From IMG/VR virus record IMGVR_UViG_2718218397_000001: DNA of 41,326 nt; one strand, given 5' to 3'. This document shows positions 1 through 41,326 of the stretch, piece by piece (position 1 is the first letter of the stretch; each line of letters begins with the position of its first letter). A program made the translations under genes and the position numbers. A model generated the notes under the pieces. It searched no databases. It was not told the DNA's origin and saw only the letters and a program-made list of their open reading frames with translations. Source of the DNA: a virus. Taxonomy: Duplodnaviria; Heunggongvirae; Uroviricota; Caudoviricetes.

Positions 1-1248
1 ATGGCACTGAATATTCCATTCAGAAATGCGTACTATCGTTTTGCATCCAGTTACTCATTTCTCTTTTTTATTTCCTGGTCGCTGTGGTGGTCGTTATACG
101 CTATTTGGCTGAAAGGACATCTAGGGTTGACAGGGACGGAATTAGGTACACTTTATTCGGTCAACCAGTTTACCAGCATTCTATTTATGATGTTCTACGG
201 CATCGTTCAGGATAAACTCGGTCTGAAGAAACCGCTCATCTGGTGTATGAGTTTCATCCTGGTCTTGACCGGACCGTTTATGATTTACGTTTATGAACCG
301 TTACTGCAAAGCAATTTTTCTGTAGGTCTAATTCTGGGGGCGCTATTTTTTGGCTTGGGGTATCTGGCGGGATGCGGTTTGCTTGATAGCTTCACCGAAA
401 AAATGGCGCGAAATTTTCATTTCGAATATGGAACAGCGCGCGCCTGGGGATCTTTTGGCTATGCTATTGGCGCGTTCTTTGCCGGCATATTTTTTAGTAT
501 CAGTCCCCATATCAACTTCTGGTTGGTCTCGCTATTTGGCGCTGTATTTATGATGATCAACATGCGTTTTAAAGATAAGGATCACCAGTGCGTAGCGGCA
601 GATGCGGGAGGGGTAAAAAAAGAGGATTTTATCGCAGTTTTCAAGGATCGAAACTTCTGGGTTTTCGTCATATTTATTGTGGGGACGTGGTCTTTCTATA
701 ACATTTTTGATCAACAACTTTTTCCTGTCTTTTATGCAGGTTTATTCGAATCACACGATGTAGGAACGCGCCTGTATGGTTATCTCAACTCATTCCAGGT
801 GGTACTCGAAGCGCTGTGCATGGCGATTATTCCTTTCTTTGTGAATCGGGTAGGGCCAAAAAATGCATTACTTATCGGAGTTGTGATTATGGCGTTGCGT
901 ATCCTTTCCTGCGCGCTGTTCGTTAACCCCTGGATTATTTCATTAGTGAAGTTGTTACATGCCATTGAGGTTCCACTTTGTGTCATATCCGTCTTCAAAT
1001 ACAGCGTGGCAAACTTTGATAAGCGCCTGTCGTCGACGATCTTTCTGATTGGTTTTCAAATTGCCAGTTCGCTTGGGATTGTGCTGCTTTCAACGCCGAC
1101 TGGGATACTCTTTGACCACGCAGGCTACCAGACAGTTTTCTTCGCAATTTCGGGTATTGTCTGCCTGATGTTGCTATTTGGCATTTTCTTCTTGAGTAAA
1201 AAACGCGAGCAAATAGTTATGGAAACGCCTGTACCTTCAGCAATATAG
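1..1248 (+). CDS. cscB: LacY-family oligosaccharide/H+ symporter, sucrose permease-like (host gene)
   Basis: 415-aa ORF, multi-pass hydrophobic profile, LacY-like motifs; I recall this sequence as CscB, and csc loci are known to sit next to argW. Confidence 0.75.
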   Translation: MALNIPFRNAYYRFASSYSFLFFISWSLWWSLYAIWLKGHLGLTGTELGTLYSVNQFTSILFMMFYGIVQDKLGLKKPLIWCMSFILVLTGPFMIYVYEPLLQSNFSVGLILGALFFGLGYLAGCGLLDSFTEKMARNFHFEYGTARAWGSFGYAIGAFFAGIFFSISPHINFWLVSLFGAVFMMINMRFKDKDHQCVAADAGGVKKEDFIAVFKDRNFWVFVIFIVGTWSFYNIFDQQLFPVFYAGLFESHDVGTRLYGYLNSFQVVLEALCMAIIPFFVNRVGPKNALLIGVVIMALRILSCALFVNPWIISLVKLLHAIEVPLCVISVFKYSVANFDKRLSSTIFLIGFQIASSLGIVLLSTPTGILFDHAGYQTVFFAISGIVCLMLLFGIFFLSKKREQIVMETPVPSAI

Positions 1249-32163: not shown

Positions 32164-33429
32164 ATGGCTACTTGGCAAGGAACAAACGGCGGATTGTTGG
32201 CTGGTATCGGCGGCGTCAACTCAAACGCTCCGAGCGTAAATGACATCAGCAATACGCTTCAGCTTATCAGGCAGAACAATGATATTGAGCATTCAGGCGC
32301 TAACAATGTTGGGCTGACTGCTTTGCAAGGCCTTTCAGGTATTGCAGGGGTGTTTCAGCAGGAAAAGCAGGCTCAGCGGCAGAAAGAATTTCAGCAGGCG
32401 TACGCTAATGCTTATGCGTCTGGTGATCGCGGTGCTTTGCGTCAGTTGGCTACTCAATATCCAGACCAGATTGAATCCGTTCGTAAAGGCATGGGGTTCA
32501 TTGATGAAGACCAGCGTAATTCTATCGGCACCTTAGCGGCTGGCGCACGCCTTGCGTCATCGTCTCCAGAAGCAATGCAATCATGGCTGCAAAACAACGC
32601 CAAGGAACTTACTCGCGTCGGTGTTGACCCTAACAGCGTTGCTCAGATGTATCGGCAGAACCCTTCAGGATTTGGTGAGTTTGTTGATCACCTTGGAATG
32701 GCTGCTCTTGGTCCGATTGATTACTTCAATGTTCAGGACAAGATGGTAGGTCGCCAGCAGGATCAGCAAAGAATTAACGAAACAATCCGTAATAATGACA
32801 TGACAAATGCCAGAGGGTGGGCAAGCAACAATATTGCGCAACAAAATGTCAATCTTCGGCGGATGGAATTAGAGGACAAGAAATACGACAGACTCATCGC
32901 AAATGAAACTAATGCATTAAAACTTGCTGAATTGCAGGACAAGAGATTGCAGAATCAGCAAGCTATGGAGCAGGCAAAGCGAGATAAGGCCGATGCGTAC
33001 AACTCTGGAATGGATAATCTCTCCAGAACGATAGAGACGGCTACAAAAGTTCTTAATAGCCCAGGATTCACGGGATATTTCGGAACAAACCTAAACCCAC
33101 TATCGAGTAGATTCATTCCAGGAACAGAGGCTGCTGACACAGAAACTCTGGTTGACACACTGAAATCTCAGGGATTCTTATCTGGCATTCAGCAGATGAA
33201 AGGGATGGGGGCTTTAAGTAATGCCGAGGGGCAAAAGGTAATGGATGCTATTGGTAGTTTGTCCCCAAATCAGTCTGAAAAATCAGCCAGAGAAGCTATT
33301 AAAACAATCATAAAAACCACTGAGATGGCTCAGAAACGTATGCAACAGAAATACGGGAAGGACATACAACCGTCTCAACAGCAGCTTTCTGATGATGACC
33401 TGATTAATAAATATCTCGGAGGGCAGTAA
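32164..33429 (+). CDS. Ejection protein (P22 gp20-like)
   Basis: 421 aa; gene order. Confidence 0.65.
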
Positions 33430-35543
33430 TGGCCTATAGTCGTGAACAGTTGATGACGGCGTTAAGGAATGCTGATGCTGCCGGCGATACTGAGGGAGCA
33501 CGTCGCATTGCTCAGATGTTGTCTTCTGGTGATCAATCCACTCAAAACCAATCGCAGCCAGGAGAACAATCTCTGGTAGGAAAAGCCACTGACTGGCTCA
33601 CTGGTGGTCAAAGCGCAGGGCAAATTGCAGAACAGGCTGGCCGTGGTCTGGTAAACATACCATTTGACGTATTGCAGGGTGGCGCAAGTCTGATTAATGC
33701 AATCAGCCAGGGGCTTGGTGGCCCCAAGGTTTTGGATGATGTCTATCGTCCAGTCGATAGACCGACAGACCCTTACGCGCAAGCCGGTGAAACAATTGGT
33801 GGGTATCTCCTGCCAATTGGCACAGCGGCAAAAGCTGCTGGAGCGCCAGCAAAGCTCGCAGGAGACATCGGTTCCGCAGGAAACATGATTGCCGGTTCTC
33901 TTGCTGATGCTGCAAATCAGGAGGGTGATTTTGCACAAAATGCTGCCATTAACGGTGGTATCAATATTGGTGCTCAAGGCGTTCTTTCAGGTGTTGGGCG
34001 CGTTATTGCGCCAAGGGTTTCACAGGCTCTTGGTGGTGCAGCACTGAATTCTGCTAATGATGTTTCCAGGATGGCAAAGTCAGGTGCTGGGCGTCAGTCA
34101 ATTGCCAGTCAGGCCGCTAATGTGTCCGAAGATGTAGCAAAAGCGGCTGAGTCTGCTGGAATTGATATAAACGCATTAACACCAGGAATGCGATCTGGAA
34201 GTCGTGGAATTGCACAAGCCGAAGGCGCATTGGCATCAACACCAGGAATTGTTCAGGACGCCCATCAGGCAGCATTTAACGAAATATCATCAAAGTTAAG
34301 TCGAAACCTTGATGAATTTGGGGCCGCATCTGGAACGGCATCAGAAAAAAGTGCGGCTATAAAACAAAGGATTCTTCAAAATCTTGATCAGATGAAGGAT
34401 GCCGAGCGCGCGGCATGGGATGACGTGCGGTCAACGATGCCAAATCAAAAAGCAAGAATGCTAAATGGTAATGCCGTTATTCAGGCAGAGCGATCTGCTG
34501 GCATACCGCTTACTCCTGAAATGAAACAGTTTGTTCAGGCAAACAATCAAGGTGGAGTAACATTTGATGGCATGAAAGCATGGAGAGCGAAATTTGCTGA
34601 TGCGGAGCAAAAATATAAGCGTAGCGGAGAGGCAAATGCGGCAAGGAGAGCAGGGGAAATACGCCGGGCAATTACTGATGATATGCGCACAATGGCGGAA
34701 AACGGCGGATTTCTTGATAACTGGCAAAAAGCTAATGATCTGTCTAAAGCGAGGTTATCAGCACAAGAGAGTGCAGAGTCTGTTTTCGGGCGTGATTTGG
34801 CAACAGATGCACTGATTACGAATGGAGTAAAATCCCTTCAATCATCGTCAGCTAAAGGTCTTAATGGTCCTTCTGGATTCCATTCTATGATCCGCGCGCT
34901 GCCAGAATCAGAGCGTGTTCCTGCTATATCATCAATGTTGCAAGATGCTATCTCGCATGGTGTACGTGGTGGTAAAGCTGATGCAGCAGGAATTAACCAT
35001 ATCGCAGAGATACTCACTCCACAAAATGTAAAAGCCATTAGCCGATATTCCTCAGAGCTTGGAAGAATTGCTGATGCATATGGCACTCTTGCAAGAGCAG
35101 CAGTGAAACCTCAGCAGTATATTGAAAGAACAGGGAGAACTGCCAATGTACTACGCGATCTGGATGCTGGTTTATCCAACGTCACATCAACAGTGTTAAA
35201 TGCAATTGCCAACTCAACATCAGGTGCCATTGTTGGTGGTGCTGGAGGAGGCATTGCAGGCGCTGCAGCAGGTGCTTTAGTTGGCGCTGGGTTAAAAGGC
35301 GCTGTATCTAAAATTGCCACCACACGTAGTGGTCGATATGCGATAGAGAAAGCTGTTCAGGAAGCCACCAAAGCAGTAAGAGCAGGCGGAAGCAAAGAAG
35401 CATTAGCGGCGGCTGAACGCAGATTTATGGCAAATAAAGCCGCCGTAAAAGCAATACGCGATGCTATTGGTAGCGATGAATTCAATCGCTTGTCGAGAGC
35501 TGGTATTGTCGCCTCGTTAAGCGGTATGAATGAATATGAATAG
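33429..35543 (+). CDS. Ejection protein (P22 gp16-like)
   Basis: 704 aa, Ala/Gly-rich; gene order. Confidence 0.65.
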
Positions 35544-35545
35544 CT

Positions 35546-36031
35546 TTATCTAATGTTGCTGCTACTGTTGCATGTGACGGTATTTCCAAATCCTGAATTG
35601 CAGTTTGTATAGGTGTCAACACGCGTTGGGTAAGGTTGAGTTATAACAGGCTGTCTCGCTTTTTGCTCGATCGCTTGCATTGTGTTTACAGCCTGATAAT
35701 TCAATAAAGCCTGCTGGAATGCTTGGCTTTGTGCTATTTGTTGGGCTTGTTCTTGGCTTTGTAATTGAACATAAAGATTCTGAAGCTCAAGTCTTGCCTG
35801 TGCGTCACTTATCTTGCCTTCATCGACACCTTGCCCGAGCATCTTCGCAGCAAGGACATACAGCTTAGGTGTTGGTGCTGATGCCATGCGTGAGTCGTTC
35901 TTCACGCTGGCATCAAGGCAATTAGCCATATCACTAAGCTTTGGATAGCGTTGTTCGCAACTTGCTTGATAGTCACTTACTTTTGCGCATCCAACCAGCA
36001 GAAGCGGGATAATTAACAGTGATTTTTTCAT
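35546..36031 (-). CDS. Lipoprotein of unknown function (immI/sieA-equivalent slot)
   Basis: ORF 35546..36067; start MKKSLLIIPLLLVGC with lipobox LVGC and aaggagag SD; Gln-rich coiled-coil middle. Confidence 0.6.
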   Translation of the reverse strand: MKKSLLIIPLLLVGCAKVSDYQASCEQRYPKLSDMANCLDASVKNDSRMASAPTPKLYVLAAKMLGQGVDEGKISDAQARLELQNLYVQLQSQEQAQQIAQSQAFQQALLNYQAVNTMQAIEQKARQPVITQPYPTRVDTYTNCNSGFGNTVTCNSSSNIR

Positions 36032-36101
36032 ATGGTTAACTCTCCTTAGTTTTTCACAGGATATCATGAAGGCAATGCCATTTTAGCCGGAAACTAGATT
36101 T

Positions 36102-36368
36102 CTATGTTTCCTTTTTATTATTGCTATACATGGTCTTAAGCGTTTCAAAAACCATTTTCTTAACCATATCAGATTGTTGTTCTGCCATACGCTCTGCATC
36201 GTCAATGTAAACGGATGCAGAGCTTTGTTTAGCCAATGATTCTTCAATCGCTGCAATTATCTCTGAGTTCAGCGACCTGTTATTCATCTTCGCACGCTGC
36301 TTAATTTTCGCGTGGAGTTCATGCGGAAGTCTCAAGTGAAACTGCGCCTCGTCGTATTTGCTGTACAT
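36102..36368 (-). CDS. mnt: Mnt-like ribbon-helix-helix repressor
   Basis: FHLRLPHELHAKIKQRA and C-terminal DAERMAEQQSDMVKKMVFETLK resemble P22 Mnt. Confidence 0.7.
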   Translation of the reverse strand: MYSKYDEAQFHLRLPHELHAKIKQRAKMNNRSLNSEIIAAIEESLAKQSSASVYIDDAERMAEQQSDMVKKMVFETLKTMYSNNKKET

Positions 36369-36489
36369 CCTTGATGCCTCACCAGTTGGGTGGAATGGCA
36401 TCGTAACTTACTGGATAAATACTCAATAGTACCATTTCGGTATGCAATCACATCATGGTTGCATCATATCATTCGTCTGGAGCAATGAA

Positions 36490-38691
36490 ATGTCAGATAT
36501 CACCGCAAATGTTGTGGTAAGCATGCCTTCGCAACTCTTCACTATGGCTCGTTCTTTTAAAGCCGTAGCCAATGGCAAAATTTATATCGGTAAAATTGAC
36601 ACGGACCCGGTAAATCCTGAAAACCAGATTCAGGTTTATGTGGAGAACGAAGATGGTTCTCACGTCCCTGTTTCGCAACCAATCATCATTAATGCTGCTG
36701 GTTATCCGGTATATAACGGACAGATTGCCAAATTCGTAACTGTGCAAGGCCATTCTATGGCTGTTTACGATGCGTATGGCGTACAGCAATTCTATTTCCC
36801 TAATGTGCTGAAGTATGACCCTGACAGATTACAACAGCGACTTATTAGTCACTTGGATGGAAATGGAGATGCTTTAGTTGCTACTAAGCAACCTATTGCA
36901 GGGGCGAAAGATAAAACAGTACATGATTGGATTGCTGAGCATGTTTCTATTAAAGACATGTATGGTGTTATTGGTGATGGTGTTAACGATGATGCGCCTT
37001 ATATAATTACTGCACTATCCAACCTATTGATATCCTGTAATCCTATTGTATTTGTCCCTGGAACATATCTCATAAATTCAGACATTACATTTGATATCCC
37101 TGTGACATTTATTCGTGGAGCTGTATTAAAAGTAAGAAATGGTGCCGTAGTTAAATTTAATGCAGAAATTGATGCTGGAAGGTATGAGATATTTGACACA
37201 GAAGATGACTTTTTCAATAATTACTTAGAAACTCCATCTGTTAAGATACCAAATGGACCTGTTCGTATTGAGTGGTTTGGAGCTAAATCAGTAAGTAGTT
37301 ATGCAGATATAGCGTCAGCACATGATTGTTCAGATGCTTTTTTAAAGGCATGGCATGCAACATGCGGAGAATTTAATGTGGAAATAACTCCTGGTGCTCT
37401 TTATCAGTCAGAGTTTTATCATTCATATGTATCTTTATCATCAGGAAAATATAGAATGGATAAAAATCTAAAACTATGGCATAGGGTTATTTCGCCATCT
37501 ATCATCAGATATAATAAAAATGGAGGGGGGATAATTGGTGATGGAATGGGGTTGTCAATTCTTGTTTTTACAGATCCTAAGTATGAAGGAAATGCTTATG
37601 TTGAACTCAGTGATATGAGCGGAGAGATGCATGAGTTTCGTGATTTTAAAGTGACATTCTATGATCCAAATGCTACAGGAGATGATATATATTTTGGTAG
37701 AGCTGGGGCTTGCATTCTGTTCTCTAGCGCAGATAGTATAGTTACAAAGAATATATGGGCTGCTGGAGCAAAATATCTTCGCACTGATATTGATGGGGTT
37801 CGTAGGGGTGGTGTGGGTATACAATTTGAGTCATTGGTAGACCATTTTTTCGAGAATCTATTAGTAGAGCACTGTATAAACGGTATTGCATTTAGTTCCT
37901 GTGTTTCAAATGGTTTTAACATTAAGGGATTCTCTAATAGAGTATCTGATCTGGCATTTGGTAATTATATACCAGCATGGCCAGATCTAATCACGCAAAA
38001 TGGCGTAAATCTTGTATCTGTTTCTGGCATGGAGAGCAAGGCATGTCCTGCAACTCCTATTTATTTTGGGACGGTTGATAACAGGGTTAACATAACTAAT
38101 GTTAATATTAAAGGAAATGCAGAATCATCATCTTCAATAGTAACATTTAGAGCCATTGCGTTTAACCATGCTGGGGCCGGTGCAGTAGGATTGATTCAGG
38201 GCAATGTTATGAATGTGAACTACGGTCTTATTGATGACGGTGGAACAGCTTTTGCTGGTAAATCTGGTTCACCATTAAGACTAACTTTTAATGTTTATAA
38301 TGTTGCAGGGAATTCCGCAACAGAAACAGCTGTTGCTGTATTCAAAAACCCTTTGTCTAATGTCGATATTGATTTAGGTGTGAATGGCGCATTGTTTCCT
38401 GCGCTTATTAGCTCATGTAATTACGCCATAGCCAGAATTAATATTGTTGGTATCACTGGGTCAAACTCAGCTCCCTACGTGGCATTCGGATGCAATGCAG
38501 GAATATTAATAATTAGAAGTTTGAAAGCATCAGGAAGTTCAGCGGCATACCTTGGCTATGCAGGAGGATCGTCTCAAGTCATTCTTCCATCTGCAATGTC
38601 AGCTGATATCACACTGGTTAGGAAAGGTTCAGGCTCTTCTGCTGATATAAGGCAGGAATCATCTTCACCTTACAACAATATTCAGTCTTAA
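36490..38691 (+). CDS. Tailspike: P22-type N-terminal head-binding domain fused to a different receptor-binding domain
   Basis: [43 protein letters not shown] matches P22 gp9 N-terminus; remainder Gly/Asn/Ser-rich and AT-rich. Confidence 0.85.
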
Positions 38692-38725
38692 ATTCAAAAA
38701 ATAAATATCATTTTTTAATAAAAAA

Positions 38726-38760
38726 GGCATGCATACAAACTATAACTGCATGCCATTTTT
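38726..38760. terminator. Bidirectional terminator between convergent tailspike and oac
   Basis: ggcatgca...tgcatgcc hairpin flanked by A-run upstream and T-run downstream. Confidence 0.55.
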
Positions 38761-38762
38761 AA

Positions 38763-39755
38763 TCAATTGCTTATTTTATTGTATATTTTTATTGTTGTAA
38801 AATATGCGATAAAGAAACATAAGAAAGTGTATAATATAGTGTCTATAGAGTTATGCAGATACACCTTCAAACCAATCATTTTGAAAGATGAATAAATAAA
38901 TGTTTTAAGCATTTGCTCTGTTCCGCAAAGCACTAGAGTTGATTGCCCTATTAATATAACTTGCTTTATCTTTATGCGCTTTGCAATGGTAATGTTTGGG
39001 ATAAATAGCGCTGCCGTTATAATAAACGATGCAAGTATTTTTAAATATTCGTTTTTAATTCCATTATATATTGAGGCTGCCCCATAAAAATAAACATAAA
39101 TAAATAACGCCATCGACAATGAGCAAATTATGTAAGAGGTTATTTTTGATGTTAGGTTGCCATTATATTCTTGTGGCTCTTTAATATAACAGGAAAGGTA
39201 TGCGCCCAAAGCATAATAAGCAATATACCTTAAAGCGCTGTCAATATTAAAAAACAACTTTGGCTGAACACCTATTTTCATAATTGAAGAAACAAAGAAT
39301 ATCGCAATGCATGTTATGAAAATAAGATGCCTATTCTTTATTATAAGCTGTATAAATGAGTGCATCATTATAATAACAAACAAACATGGAAGAAACCAAA
39401 GTGATGCAGCAAATATGTGGTTTCTGATTCCTGGTATTATCTGGCTGGCAAGCTCTCTTACCTGATGGAAGTCATAATTATAGTATAGAGAAAAGAAAAT
39501 AAGGGAAATAAGCGAGAATGTAAAATACGGTATCAGTATCCTTTTTGAGGATTTAATCGCTATAATATTAAAATCATATAGAGAAGAGCATTTTTTAAAA
39601 AAAATCCCGGAAATAAAAAAGAATAACGGGACGTGAAATGAAAACACAAAAGGATATAACTGCTTTGCATTATCGCCAAAGTGTCCTAAGTAAATCCAAA
39701 ATATGGCCACTGCCTTTAATGAATCAATCCATTCTAAACGATGGTTGGCATTCAT
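38763..39755 (-). CDS. oac: O-antigen acetyltransferase (acyltransferase-3 family, Sf6 Oac-like)
   Basis: 330 aa, many TM segments, N-terminal RLEWIDSLKAVAIFWIYLGHF motif; very AT-rich; next to tailspike and int. Confidence 0.75.
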   Translation of the reverse strand: MNANHRLEWIDSLKAVAIFWIYLGHFGDNAKQLYPFVFSFHVPLFFFISGIFFKKCSSLYDFNIIAIKSSKRILIPYFTFSLISLIFFSLYYNYDFHQVRELASQIIPGIRNHIFAASLWFLPCLFVIIMMHSFIQLIIKNRHLIFITCIAIFFVSSIMKIGVQPKLFFNIDSALRYIAYYALGAYLSCYIKEPQEYNGNLTSKITSYIICSLSMALFIYVYFYGAASIYNGIKNEYLKILASFIITAALFIPNITIAKRIKIKQVILIGQSTLVLCGTEQMLKTFIYSSFKMIGLKVYLHNSIDTILYTFLCFFIAYFTTIKIYNKISN

Positions 39756-40168
39756 GAAATCTCCTAAATAATATTATTTATATTTAATGGCATAGGATGA
39801 TAGCACATAGACAAACTATCATCACCATGTGCTCAACAATGCTGACTAGCATTACTGTGTTAATATACAGTGCATATGGGAAGTGAGTTATTTGGTTCAC
39901 AAACTAGATAAAGAATGCATTAAATTAACTGTCAAGCTGGAGATTCTTTGCGTACTAGTATCTTACAGCTACGTTATTGAGATGTGATGAAGGCAATGCC
40001 AGGTAGCTATTACATAATTCGTGCTAAGGTGGTTGTCACTTTGCCAAGCGTATAGGTAATTCTTTTAGAACAGTAGATGGTGAAATTCTGGAGGGTGAGG
40101 TGGACGTGAAGGTGATTCTGACACATCTGATTAACCTGGTCACCGATGACGATAACCAGGGAATTTAA

Positions 40169-41326
40169 TCAGGAGAACTTTTCATCAATCCAGTCCGCCC
40201 ACCACTGCATCATTTCTCTGCGCTTATCGAGATACTGAGCATGGTTGTAAATACCGCGCACAGATCCGCCGTTGGCATGTGCAAGTTGCACTTCAATGGC
40301 GTCGGCAGGCCATTCGTGCTCGTTCATAATCGTGCTGAATTCATGCCTGAATCCGTGACCGCTTTCCAGACCCTCATAGCCGATTTGTTTGATCACAAGT
40401 AGCACCGCGTTCTCGCAGATTGGCTTTTTCTTATCGTTGCGCCCGGCAAAAACAAACTCTGATACTGGTTTAGTGATGGAGCTTAGCGTAGTGAGAAGTT
40501 CAACCACCTGGTCCGACATCGGGACCACATGAATTTTGCGGCCCTTCATCACACTGGCGTCGATGGTGATAATCCTGTTTTCAAAATCGACGTTCTTCCA
40601 TAGCATAGAACGAAGCTCTTTCGTTCTTAGGGCTGTGTAGCGTAAAACTTTGGTCGCAATGAGCGATACGATACTTCCTGAAAATGTTGCCAGTGCTTTG
40701 TTGAATGCAGGGATCTGGTCTGCAGGTAAAAACGGGAAGTTCTTCTTGCGGTATCCCTTCATGGCGTCTGCAAGGTCAGGTGCCGGGTTATATTTAGCCC
40801 TTCCGGTGACAATAGCGTAACGGAAAACCTCGCCGCATCTTCTGCGTGCTTTGTTGGCTCGCTCCATTGCACCGCGATCTTCAAATCTGCGGATTACTTC
40901 CAGCAGTTGCATCGGCTCAATATCCTGAATTTCAAGACCACCGATGATGGGTAAAATGTCGTCATCAAACATTTTGGCAAGTTCAGTTGCATAGCCTACT
41001 GACCAGACTTGCTTCTTGTGCTCGTACCATTCCTTGTAAATGGCACTAAAGGAATTGTTGTTAGACGAAGCCTTTTTCGCTTTTACCGGATCGATGCCAA
41101 CCGAGATGTCTTTCCTCGCGGTCCATGCTTTATCTCTTGCCTCCTGCAAAGTCATAAGCGGATATTTTCCTACGGTCAGTATTTTTTCCTTACCGTCAAT
41201 CTTGTAGCGAAGCTGCCATACCTTTTTCCCGGATACAGGGACATAAAGGTACAGGCCATTACCATCGAGAAGGCGGTATGGTTTTTCTTTCGGCTTTGCT
41301 GCTTCAATCTGCTTAACGGTGAGCAT
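40169..41326 (-). CDS. intS: Tyrosine integrase, P4 type (IntS-like); start at window edge
   Basis: 385-aa ORF I recognise as E. coli CPS-53 IntS-like (MLTVKQIEAAKPKEKPYRLLDGNGLYLYV...). Confidence 0.85.
   Translation of the reverse strand: MLTVKQIEAAKPKEKPYRLLDGNGLYLYVPVSGKKVWQLRYKIDGKEKILTVGKYPLMTLQEARDKAWTARKDISVGIDPVKAKKASSNNNSFSAIYKEWYEHKKQVWSVGYATELAKMFDDDILPIIGGLEIQDIEPMQLLEVIRRFEDRGAMERANKARRRCGEVFRYAIVTGRAKYNPAPDLADAMKGYRKKNFPFLPADQIPAFNKALATFSGSIVSLIATKVLRYTALRTKELRSMLWKNVDFENRIITIDASVMKGRKIHVVPMSDQVVELLTTLSSITKPVSEFVFAGRNDKKKPICENAVLLVIKQIGYEGLESGHGFRHEFSTIMNEHEWPADAIEVQLAHANGGSVRGIYNHAQYLDKRREMMQWWADWIDEKFS

Follow-up and report, generated by a model that had tools for sequence, protein, structure and literature searches.

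A tailspike gene and a convergent acyltransferase gene as a probable adsorption and serotype-conversion cassette in an Sf6-like prophage

The range of strains open to a temperate phage depends jointly on the specificity of its tailspike and on the O-antigen modification made by the prophage, and so does the appearance of the lysogen to antibodies and other phages. Do two neighboring genes of one phage genome, encoding a tailspike and a membrane acyltransferase, act together on one host glycan in this way? The genes lie in a virus of the Caudoviricetes (IMG/VR record IMGVR_UViG_2718218397_000001), of which we analyzed a stretch of 41,326 nucleotides, hereafter called the window. A sequence-only reading had described the locus as a serotype-conversion and host-range cassette; the interval from 36490 to 39755 spans exactly the tailspike start to the acyltransferase start. 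Judged from its sequence and surroundings, the acquired DNA is probably a two-gene cassette that would "adsorb and then change the lock", carried by an Sf6-like (Lederbergvirus-type) prophage at argW.

The tailspike gene (36490..38691, + strand) encodes 733 aa and ends with a TAA stop codon at 38689-38691. Its open reading frame (ORF) as scanned is 36442-38691(+), but because of homology to Sf6 gp14 (MTDIITNVVI) and a GGAG 8 nt upstream, the true start is most plausibly the ATG at 36490. Residues 1-113 (36490..36828, + strand) form the head-binding domain, the virion anchor common to Sf6, HK620, CUS-3 and P22-like phages, and match Pfam Head_binding (PF09008) with E 2.3e-66 and 221.6 bits against a cut-off of 24. 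The domain had been likened to that of P22 gp9. It is present, but with 91% identity to Sf6 and about 67-75% to P22 it is of the Sf6 type. In a PDB sequence search, Sf6 gp14 matched the tailspike with E 8.5e-73, and the match to the P22 head-binding domain (E about 1e-48 to 6e-50) extends as far as residue 114. Beyond the anchor a weak Sf6-like neck continues until about residue 190. DNA homology to P22-like phages ends at 36824-36838, in agreement with the earlier view that the rest of the protein is unrelated to P22.

This break is the left recombination junction of a mosaic. We ran megablast against 50,697 records of phages and 5,426 complete genomes of E. coli; the head-binding part was matched by 34 phage records and by 1167 E. 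coli records from 1162 genomes, and all these matches end at 36824-36838. The junction itself (36825..36838) covers codons of about 112-116, directly after YDPD, and tailspike homologs on other chassis start aligning at residues 114-117. Such exchange after the head-binding domain is familiar from the modular P22-like tailspikes (P22 gp9, HK620, CUS-3, epsilon34), which share the ~110-aa anchor and a swappable beta-helix; in CUS-3, an annotated 'bsq1 boundary sequence' falls at the tailspike junction of the window. They differ in that anchors of Tail_spike_N, T7-tail-like and Kuttervirus type carry the receptor-binding family of the window too.

The right edge lies upstream of the integrase gene. 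Sf6 DNA homology, which ends at 36824, restarts at 40178, three codons ahead of the stop of the integrase gene. Upstream of the acyltransferase gene lies an AT-rich non-coding stretch (39756..40027; G+C 0.342), in which no ORF of at least 50 aa was found and which is matched in full in a single E. coli genome, that of strain JNE082640, an STEC (Shiga toxin-producing E. coli). The same genome is the only one of the 5,426 to contain the cassette over its whole length (99.1% identity); its prophage adjoins tRNA-Arg, and its counterpart of the tailspike is annotated 'phage tailspike protein'. Next comes a remnant (40028..40168, + strand) consisting of the last 46 codons and stop of a 101-aa gene that other argW prophages have complete beside intS. 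In that of E. coli S163-2, the full gene (L013 3890-4195; tblastn 72% identity, E 2e-20) is flanked by a DinI gene and intS. The remnant looks like a scar left by cassette insertion. DNA like 40028-40168 also occurs in two other genomes, under 'S24/S26 family peptidase' annotations.

Because homology ends at 36824-36838 and the gene remnant begins at 40028, we place the horizontally acquired segment, on sequence grounds, at about 36825 to about 40027. Base composition follows these edges. G+C falls from 0.434 in the head-binding part to 0.378 in the receptor-binding part and 0.211 in the spacer between tailspike and acyltransferase, is 0.309 in the acyltransferase gene and 0.342 in the region upstream of it, and then reaches 0.477 in the integrase gene, close to the 0.478 of the rest of the phage. 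The earlier picture of foreign, visibly AT-rich DNA after the head-binding domain thus stood, but the right edge had been drawn at 39755 and now lies farther out, at about 40027. The conserved right flank is an integrase gene of IntS/Sf6 type (40169..41326, - strand), with Pfam integrase domains and 99% identity to Sf6 Int; the window terminates exactly at its start codon.

What does the exchanged part of the tailspike do? The neck and receptor-binding domain (RBD; 36829..38688, + strand) is a predicted polysaccharide depolymerase. We modeled the tailspike as a monomer from 23 homologs, with a predicted local distance difference test (pLDDT) score of 78 that is low only at the ends and in the linker 105-150. 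The model has a right-handed parallel beta-helix from about residue 160. This predicted beta-helix is a glycan-processing tailspike fold, in line with the O-antigen-specific adsorption foreseen earlier, and fits hydrolases and lyases alike. Its best structural matches share just 9-14% identity, and the receptor-binding family is uncharacterized, has no solved member and is a new addition to the catalog. Invariant acidic residues include D415, D433, E460, D487 and E515. In the reading we prefer, the domain would bind, and most likely cleave, a particular polysaccharide on the host surface.

The second gene (38763..39755, - strand) encodes a 330-aa membrane protein of the acyltransferase-3 (AT3)-only type with about 10 transmembrane helices, a predicted O-antigen O-acetyltransferase. 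Pfam Acyl_transf_3 (PF01757) covers residues 8-318 with 71.8 bits against a cut-off of 31. The structural model is very confident (pLDDT 92.7; predicted template modeling score 0.90) and shows an about 10-helix transmembrane acyltransferase fold, which is among those recently unified with AT3 (PMC12423673). The gene had been called a convergent, AT-rich, Oac-like acyltransferase. Family, orientation and composition are as described, but orthology to Oac is not: the protein shares 26% identity with Sf6 Oac over 226 aa (E 1e-7), and by sequence is Oac-like at the family level only, neither an ortholog nor an oac allele. PHROGs gave zero matches for it, and NCBIfam zero matches for it or the tailspike. 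A sulfotransferase, its sole PDB sequence match, was spurious and rejected as a relative. The AT3 clade to which it belongs is uncharacterized and new to the catalog.

The two genes converge on an intrinsic terminator, described before as bidirectional, and the hairpin at 38726..38754 is indeed strong on both strands. It lies in the 71-bp spacer and has an 8-bp GC-rich stem and a 13-nt loop (GGCATGCA-13 nt-TGCATGCC). Its folding energy on the + strand is -15.0 kcal/mol (z -5.0), a value that none of 200 shuffles equaled, and on the - strand -16.6 kcal/mol (z -3.4); the terminator scan listed the hairpin as terminator-like on the - strand. Because the fold is stable on both strands and is flanked by an A6 run (38720-38725) and a T5 run (38756-38760), the terminator can stop both convergent transcripts.

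Upstream of the acyltransferase gene, whose ribosome-binding site AGGAG at 39765-39761 is good, a conserved 46-bp element (39782..39827, - strand) is 87% identical to a stretch in Enterobacter kobei (L004/L005). About 40 nt beyond the ribosome-binding site it holds an extended -10-like TGcTATCAT (TG at 39805-39804, TATCAT at 39802-39797), a candidate acyltransferase promoter that does not appear in the list from a consensus promoter scan. Of the traits by which morons are known, the acyltransferase unit has a deviant base composition (G+C 0.31 against 0.48) and its own terminator, and the TGcTATCAT match is a candidate for the third, an own promoter. We considered a conserved RNA hairpin in the 46-bp element and rejected it, as the window sequence folds (z -2.5) but its E. 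kobei counterpart does not (z +0.2). The stretch 38600-40262 has no GATC site, which makes phase variation of the Dam/OxyR type, known from gtr and oafB, improbable.

Do the two genes belong together? A member of the AT3 clade (at least 56% identity) adjoins a homolog of the window RBD, in convergent orientation, in six independent backgrounds. Expressed as identity of RBD and AT3 to the window proteins, these are E. coli JNE082640 with a head-binding anchor (L001; 99% and 99%); a metagenomic 834-aa spike with a different N-terminus and lysis genes alongside (L008-9; 66% and 74%); a Salmonella locus with a siphovirus-type GpJ and a Tail_spike_N anchor (L010; 47% and 58%); a head-binding anchor on a tailspike at the prophage end (L014-16; 47% and 57%); a Tail_spike_N anchor (L018-20; 46.5% and 57%); and a further head-binding anchor (L129; 49% and 59%). 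RBD and AT3 diverge in step. The protein clusters of the tailspike (P0001, 100% over the RBD) and the acyltransferase (P0032, 99%) have 51 member sequences each. Scans with the AT3 alignment across GTDB genomes and IMG/VR returned only relatives of at most 46% identity, none of whose 104 loci lies beside a window-type RBD, and scans of viral and metagenome contigs with the RBD alignment added three loci only.

Which glycan would the pair share? The carrier JNE082640 is typed OX21:H19 (PMC10793325), and the OX21 and O163 O-antigen clusters are 98-99.9% identical (PMC4732683). The cluster of JNE082640 starts with manC, manB, wzx, wzy (annotated as O163 family) and two glycosyltransferase genes, continues with genes for a FnlA-like dehydratase, an RmlD-like reductase, a 2-epimerase and a WbuB-type glycosyltransferase of family 4 (GT4), followed by wbuC, and lacks uronic-acid synthesis genes. 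Following the pathway assignments in PMC7685785, such a cluster predicts mannose and a 6-deoxy-L-N-acetylhexosamine (N-acetyl-L-quinovosamine, L-QuiNAc, or N-acetyl-L-fucosamine, L-FucNAc) linked to N-acetylglucosamine (GlcNAc).

Two further observations lead to the same glycan. In the Xenorhabdus doucetiae chromosome, an O-antigen-type cluster ends with the gene of an AT3 protein 59% identical to the window enzyme. The cluster runs manC, manB, glycosyltransferase, fnlA-like gene, RmlD-like reductase, 2-epimerase, GT4 and AT3, and its products are 84%, 64%, 74% and 54% identical to the O163 enzymes of JNE082640. O163-type wzx/wzy genes occur in just 5 of the 5426 complete E. coli genomes. JNE082640, the single cassette carrier, is among them; the other four (KD0845, TK3887, A16 and ETEC6335) lack the cassette, and the chance that a sole carrier is O163-type under random placement is about 1/1000. 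Together, the OX21/O163 cluster of the carrier, the X. doucetiae cluster and the rarity of O163-type genomes suggest that tailspike and acyltransferase share an O163-type O-antigen as substrate. Salmonella carriers of tailspike homologs include two O41 serovars (Waycross, and arizonae 41:z4,z23:-; P0021, P0024); we found no literature link between O163 and Salmonella O41, or between O41 and QuiNAc.

The closest known parallel is Sf6, and the expected placement between tail genes and int is exactly that of Sf6. Both phages have, in the same order and orientation, the tailspike gene (+), a terminator, an AT3-only acyltransferase gene (-) with its own promoter (in the window a candidate), int (-) and attP, and Sf6 also integrates at argW, as does the window-type prophage. 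Sf6 differs in an RBD unrelated in sequence apart from the weak neck match, in a spacer between acyltransferase and int of 155 bp versus 413 bp with a gene remnant in the window, and in its glycan, the S. flexneri rhamnose backbone as against a predicted O163-type polymer. In Sf6, acetylation by Oac blocks the phage's own tailspike (PMC9558356). By analogy, the window acyltransferase would work like the Sf6 module, though without Oac orthology.

Among deposited phage genomes, tblastn with the acyltransferase found two SfII records only (36% over 96% of the protein). This nearest phage-borne, and also nearest characterized, relative (BLASTP 35% over 328 aa, E 4e-50) is SfII_25, which we take to be OacD because it is the sole AT3 match in the SfII record; OacD of SfII 6-O-acetylates O-antigen GlcNAc (PMC8952252, PMC9558356). 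It is likewise AT3-only and lies convergent behind the receptor-binding genes, here for tail fibers, followed by a terminator. SfII differs in being a myovirus-type phage with tail fibers and no tailspike, and at 35% its acyltransferase is no ortholog.

Other prophages, too, acetylate the O-antigen and so shield their lysogen against the tailspike with which the same phage cleaves it; examples are BTP1 GtrC (OafB) and the O-acetyltransferase of E. coli phage PhiV10 (PMC4413052, PMC9558356); in BTP1, OafB/GtrC acetylation hinders the cognate tailspike (PMC9558356, PMC4413052). OafB differs in its two-domain AT3-SGNH architecture and phase-variable expression, whereas the window enzyme is AT3-only and lies in a GATC-free region. 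WbaK of Salmonella group E is an AT3-only acetyltransferase at the end of an O-antigen cluster (PMC9558356), as is the X. doucetiae homolog, whereas the window acyltransferase is phage-borne and outside such a cluster. A gene for modification of the O-antigen, placed behind the RBP, has been described for Lederberg- and Uetakeviruses (PMC10408124). Tailspikes coupled to O-antigen-modifying morons are therefore already known, with Sf6, SfII, BTP1 and PhiV10 as worked examples.

Combining these observations, we propose the following mechanism. Residues 1-113 would plug the tailspike into the virion, and the exchanged C-terminal beta-helix would bind and cleave the host O-antigen, with the O163/OX21 type as best candidate, giving access to the outer membrane. 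In the lysogen, the acyltransferase gene would be transcribed from its own promoter, shielded from late transcription by the bidirectional terminator. Acetyl groups from cytoplasmic acetyl-CoA would pass through the 10-helix pore to the same O-antigen on the periplasmic side. The resulting O-acetylation would convert the serotype and hinder the tailspikes of the prophage itself and of its relatives, as with Sf6 Oac and BTP1 GtrC. We infer the shared O-antigen substrate, the acetylated sugar and superinfection exclusion; for the O-antigen as the likely substrate of the acyltransferase there is circumstantial support from the SfII relative at 35%, the X. doucetiae homolog at 59% and co-inheritance in six backgrounds.

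Several observations weigh against this proposal. The O163 link rests on one complete genome and on gene content, and the acyltransferase promoter is a sequence match only. Five backgrounds (L003, L006-7, L127, L130-132 and L133) carry the RBD without an acyltransferase, at RBD identities of 85% (L003), 51% (L006-7), 70% (L130-132) and 64% (L133). Behind the acyltransferase-less tailspikes of L003, L006 and L007, tblastn found no AT3 remnants. The AT3 is thus a frequent but optional companion of the RBD, and pairing is not obligatory. Two further loci without the enzyme speak for the proposal, in that they fit a role in lysogens only: Arya, a virulent phage of Enterobacter, has an RBD of 67% identity and a Kuttervirus one of 52%, whereas the AT3 was seen in prophage-like contexts and not in the virulent phages. 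The different O-acyl system that takes the AT3 slot in an Enterobacter kobei prophage fits such a role as well. Against the proposal, finally, the protein has K14 where the R-X10-H motif has Arg, and S69-S-K71-R72 replaces RXXR on the cytoplasmic face of transmembrane helix (TMH) 3, with the second Arg alone kept.

On these last deviations rests the view that the acyltransferase is an inactive passenger with degenerate motifs. The Arg of R-X10-H in TMH1 (Arg14/His25 of OafB) has been called absolutely conserved (PMC9833829), and Arg and RXXR residues are reported essential in OafB and Oac (PMC9833829, PMC3467182). Against decay, the reading frame is unbroken, with 99.4% conservation in JNE082640, and its fold is modeled very confidently. 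In alignments of 26 and 37 homologs, H25 is invariant, and F45, F46, G50, R111, W120 and E280 are invariant or nearly so, as is the FFxISG motif (37 homologs). Lys occupies position 14 in the majority of the subfamily, with Arg there in a few members and in Oac, and the SfII acyltransferase, taken as functional OacD, shares the K-X10-H variant. The RXXR motif, absent here in its canonical form, is degenerate throughout the subfamily, and OacD is likewise reported with a Lys substitution in RXXR (PMC8952252). We read K14 and S-S-K-R72 as subfamily variants and not as decay; they lower membership by canonical motifs, not the family assignment by profile and fold, and an inactive enzyme is very improbable.

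Other alternatives change the substrate. The enzyme may act on a glycan unrelated to the tailspike receptor, such as enterobacterial common antigen (ECA) or peptidoglycan, its position reflecting a permissive site for moron insertion. WecH is indeed an AT3-only enzyme acting on ECA (PMC9558356), and the slot between tail genes and intS holds other cargo: oac in Sf6, and a 631-aa, OafA-like acyltransferase with DinI in S163-2. Yet the AT3 clade accompanies the same RBD in six backgrounds with differing genome positions and anchors, the identities fall in step (99/99, 66/74, about 47/57), and distant AT3s never pair with the RBD. Because the pairing is repeated and co-diverging, a neutral insertion site fails as an explanation, and we consider an unrelated glycan unlikely. 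An unlikely case too, though by a shade less so, is that the tailspike is a lyase acting on a capsule or exopolysaccharide (K antigen, O-antigen capsule or colanic acid) and the acyltransferase acetylates that polymer. The beta-helix would suit such a lyase equally well, but because the O163 cluster lacks uronic-acid synthesis genes, we favor a hydrolase, with low confidence. The two-gene O-antigen cassette remains the reading we prefer.

One side observation concerns the insertion slot itself. The 631-aa acyltransferase family protein of S163-2 (L013 1531-3426(-)) lies between tail-fiber genes and intS of a myovirus-type argW prophage and, judged by size, may have two domains, like OafA. Surface-acylating morons seem to settle generally between tail genes and intS.

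How far does the cassette extend beyond E. coli prophages? On the available loci, RBD and AT3 seem to have moved together among no fewer than three types of anchor and four genera. A prophage of Enterobacter kobei (L004/L005 7494-9975(-)) has, in the place behind a 70% identical RBD, a DltB-like membrane-bound O-acyltransferase (MBOAT) of 484 aa (E 4e-28 to DltB) and a 339-aa protein with zero Pfam or PDB matches. The E. kobei copy of the 46-bp element (L004/L005 10006-10051) lies directly upstream of the MBOAT gene. This looks like the in-place replacement of one O-acyl system by another behind the same element, and the MBOAT and its 339-aa partner may be a two-component O-acylation system of a kind new to phage conversion.

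A broader interpretation would make RBD and AT3 a co-evolving portable unit across podovirus, siphovirus and other chassis of Escherichia, Salmonella, Enterobacter and Xenorhabdus, with the AT3 replaceable by an MBOAT, and would have a prophage gene separate OX21, a provisional serogroup, from O163. The last element is suggested by the near-identity of the two clusters, the OX21 typing of the carrier and the absence of the cassette from the other four O163-type genomes. Taken as a whole, we regard this interpretation as tentative and rather doubtful. If the OX21/O163 idea is true, it would explain a serotyping discrepancy that is invisible to typing based on gene clusters.

Two of the acyltransferase-less loci deserve separate mention. 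The Kuttervirus is Escherichia phage vB_EcoM_JN03 (L135 4543-7836), isolated on E. coli O157:H7, whose 1097-aa tailspike has its RBD homology at the C-terminus; the window RBD type thus also serves on multi-spike adsorption complexes of myoviruses. L003 is a P22-like prophage next to dacD. About 250 bp downstream of its tailspike gene lies a 52-bp fragment (L003 7450-7501) that is 92% identical to the 3' end of the integrase gene (window 40178-40229), which may be the footprint of module exchange or deletion.

These findings leave current understanding intact; the biology is ordinary, with modestly new details. New here are the receptor-binding family, the AT3 clade, their movement as a unit, the MBOAT swap and a testable receptor assignment. 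[quoted passage not shown] It also offers a clean natural example of receptor-binding and receptor-modifying genes exchanged as one unit between unrelated virion types.

Several neighboring genes complete the picture of the window. Its left end (1-1248(+)) holds the full gene of a sugar/proton symporter of the LacY family (Pfam E 1e-193), which probably belongs to the host DNA next to the prophage and not to the phage. An Arc/Mnt-type repressor gene (36102-36401) lies upstream of the tailspike gene. Between the ejection-protein genes and this mnt-like repressor gene, a 173-aa ORF (35546-36067(-)) matches PHROG 6067 (unknown function) and has an N-terminus, MKKSLLIIPLLLVGC, like that of a lipoprotein; P22 has sieA in this place, and the ORF may encode a second exclusion function. 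The third ejection protein (33429-35543(+)) has 704 aa and no Pfam match, and its JNE082640 counterpart (L001 4763-7156) has 797 aa and is annotated with a lytic transglycosylase domain. Because the two prophages are otherwise near-identical, this difference in length points to another mosaic joint, upstream of the cassette.

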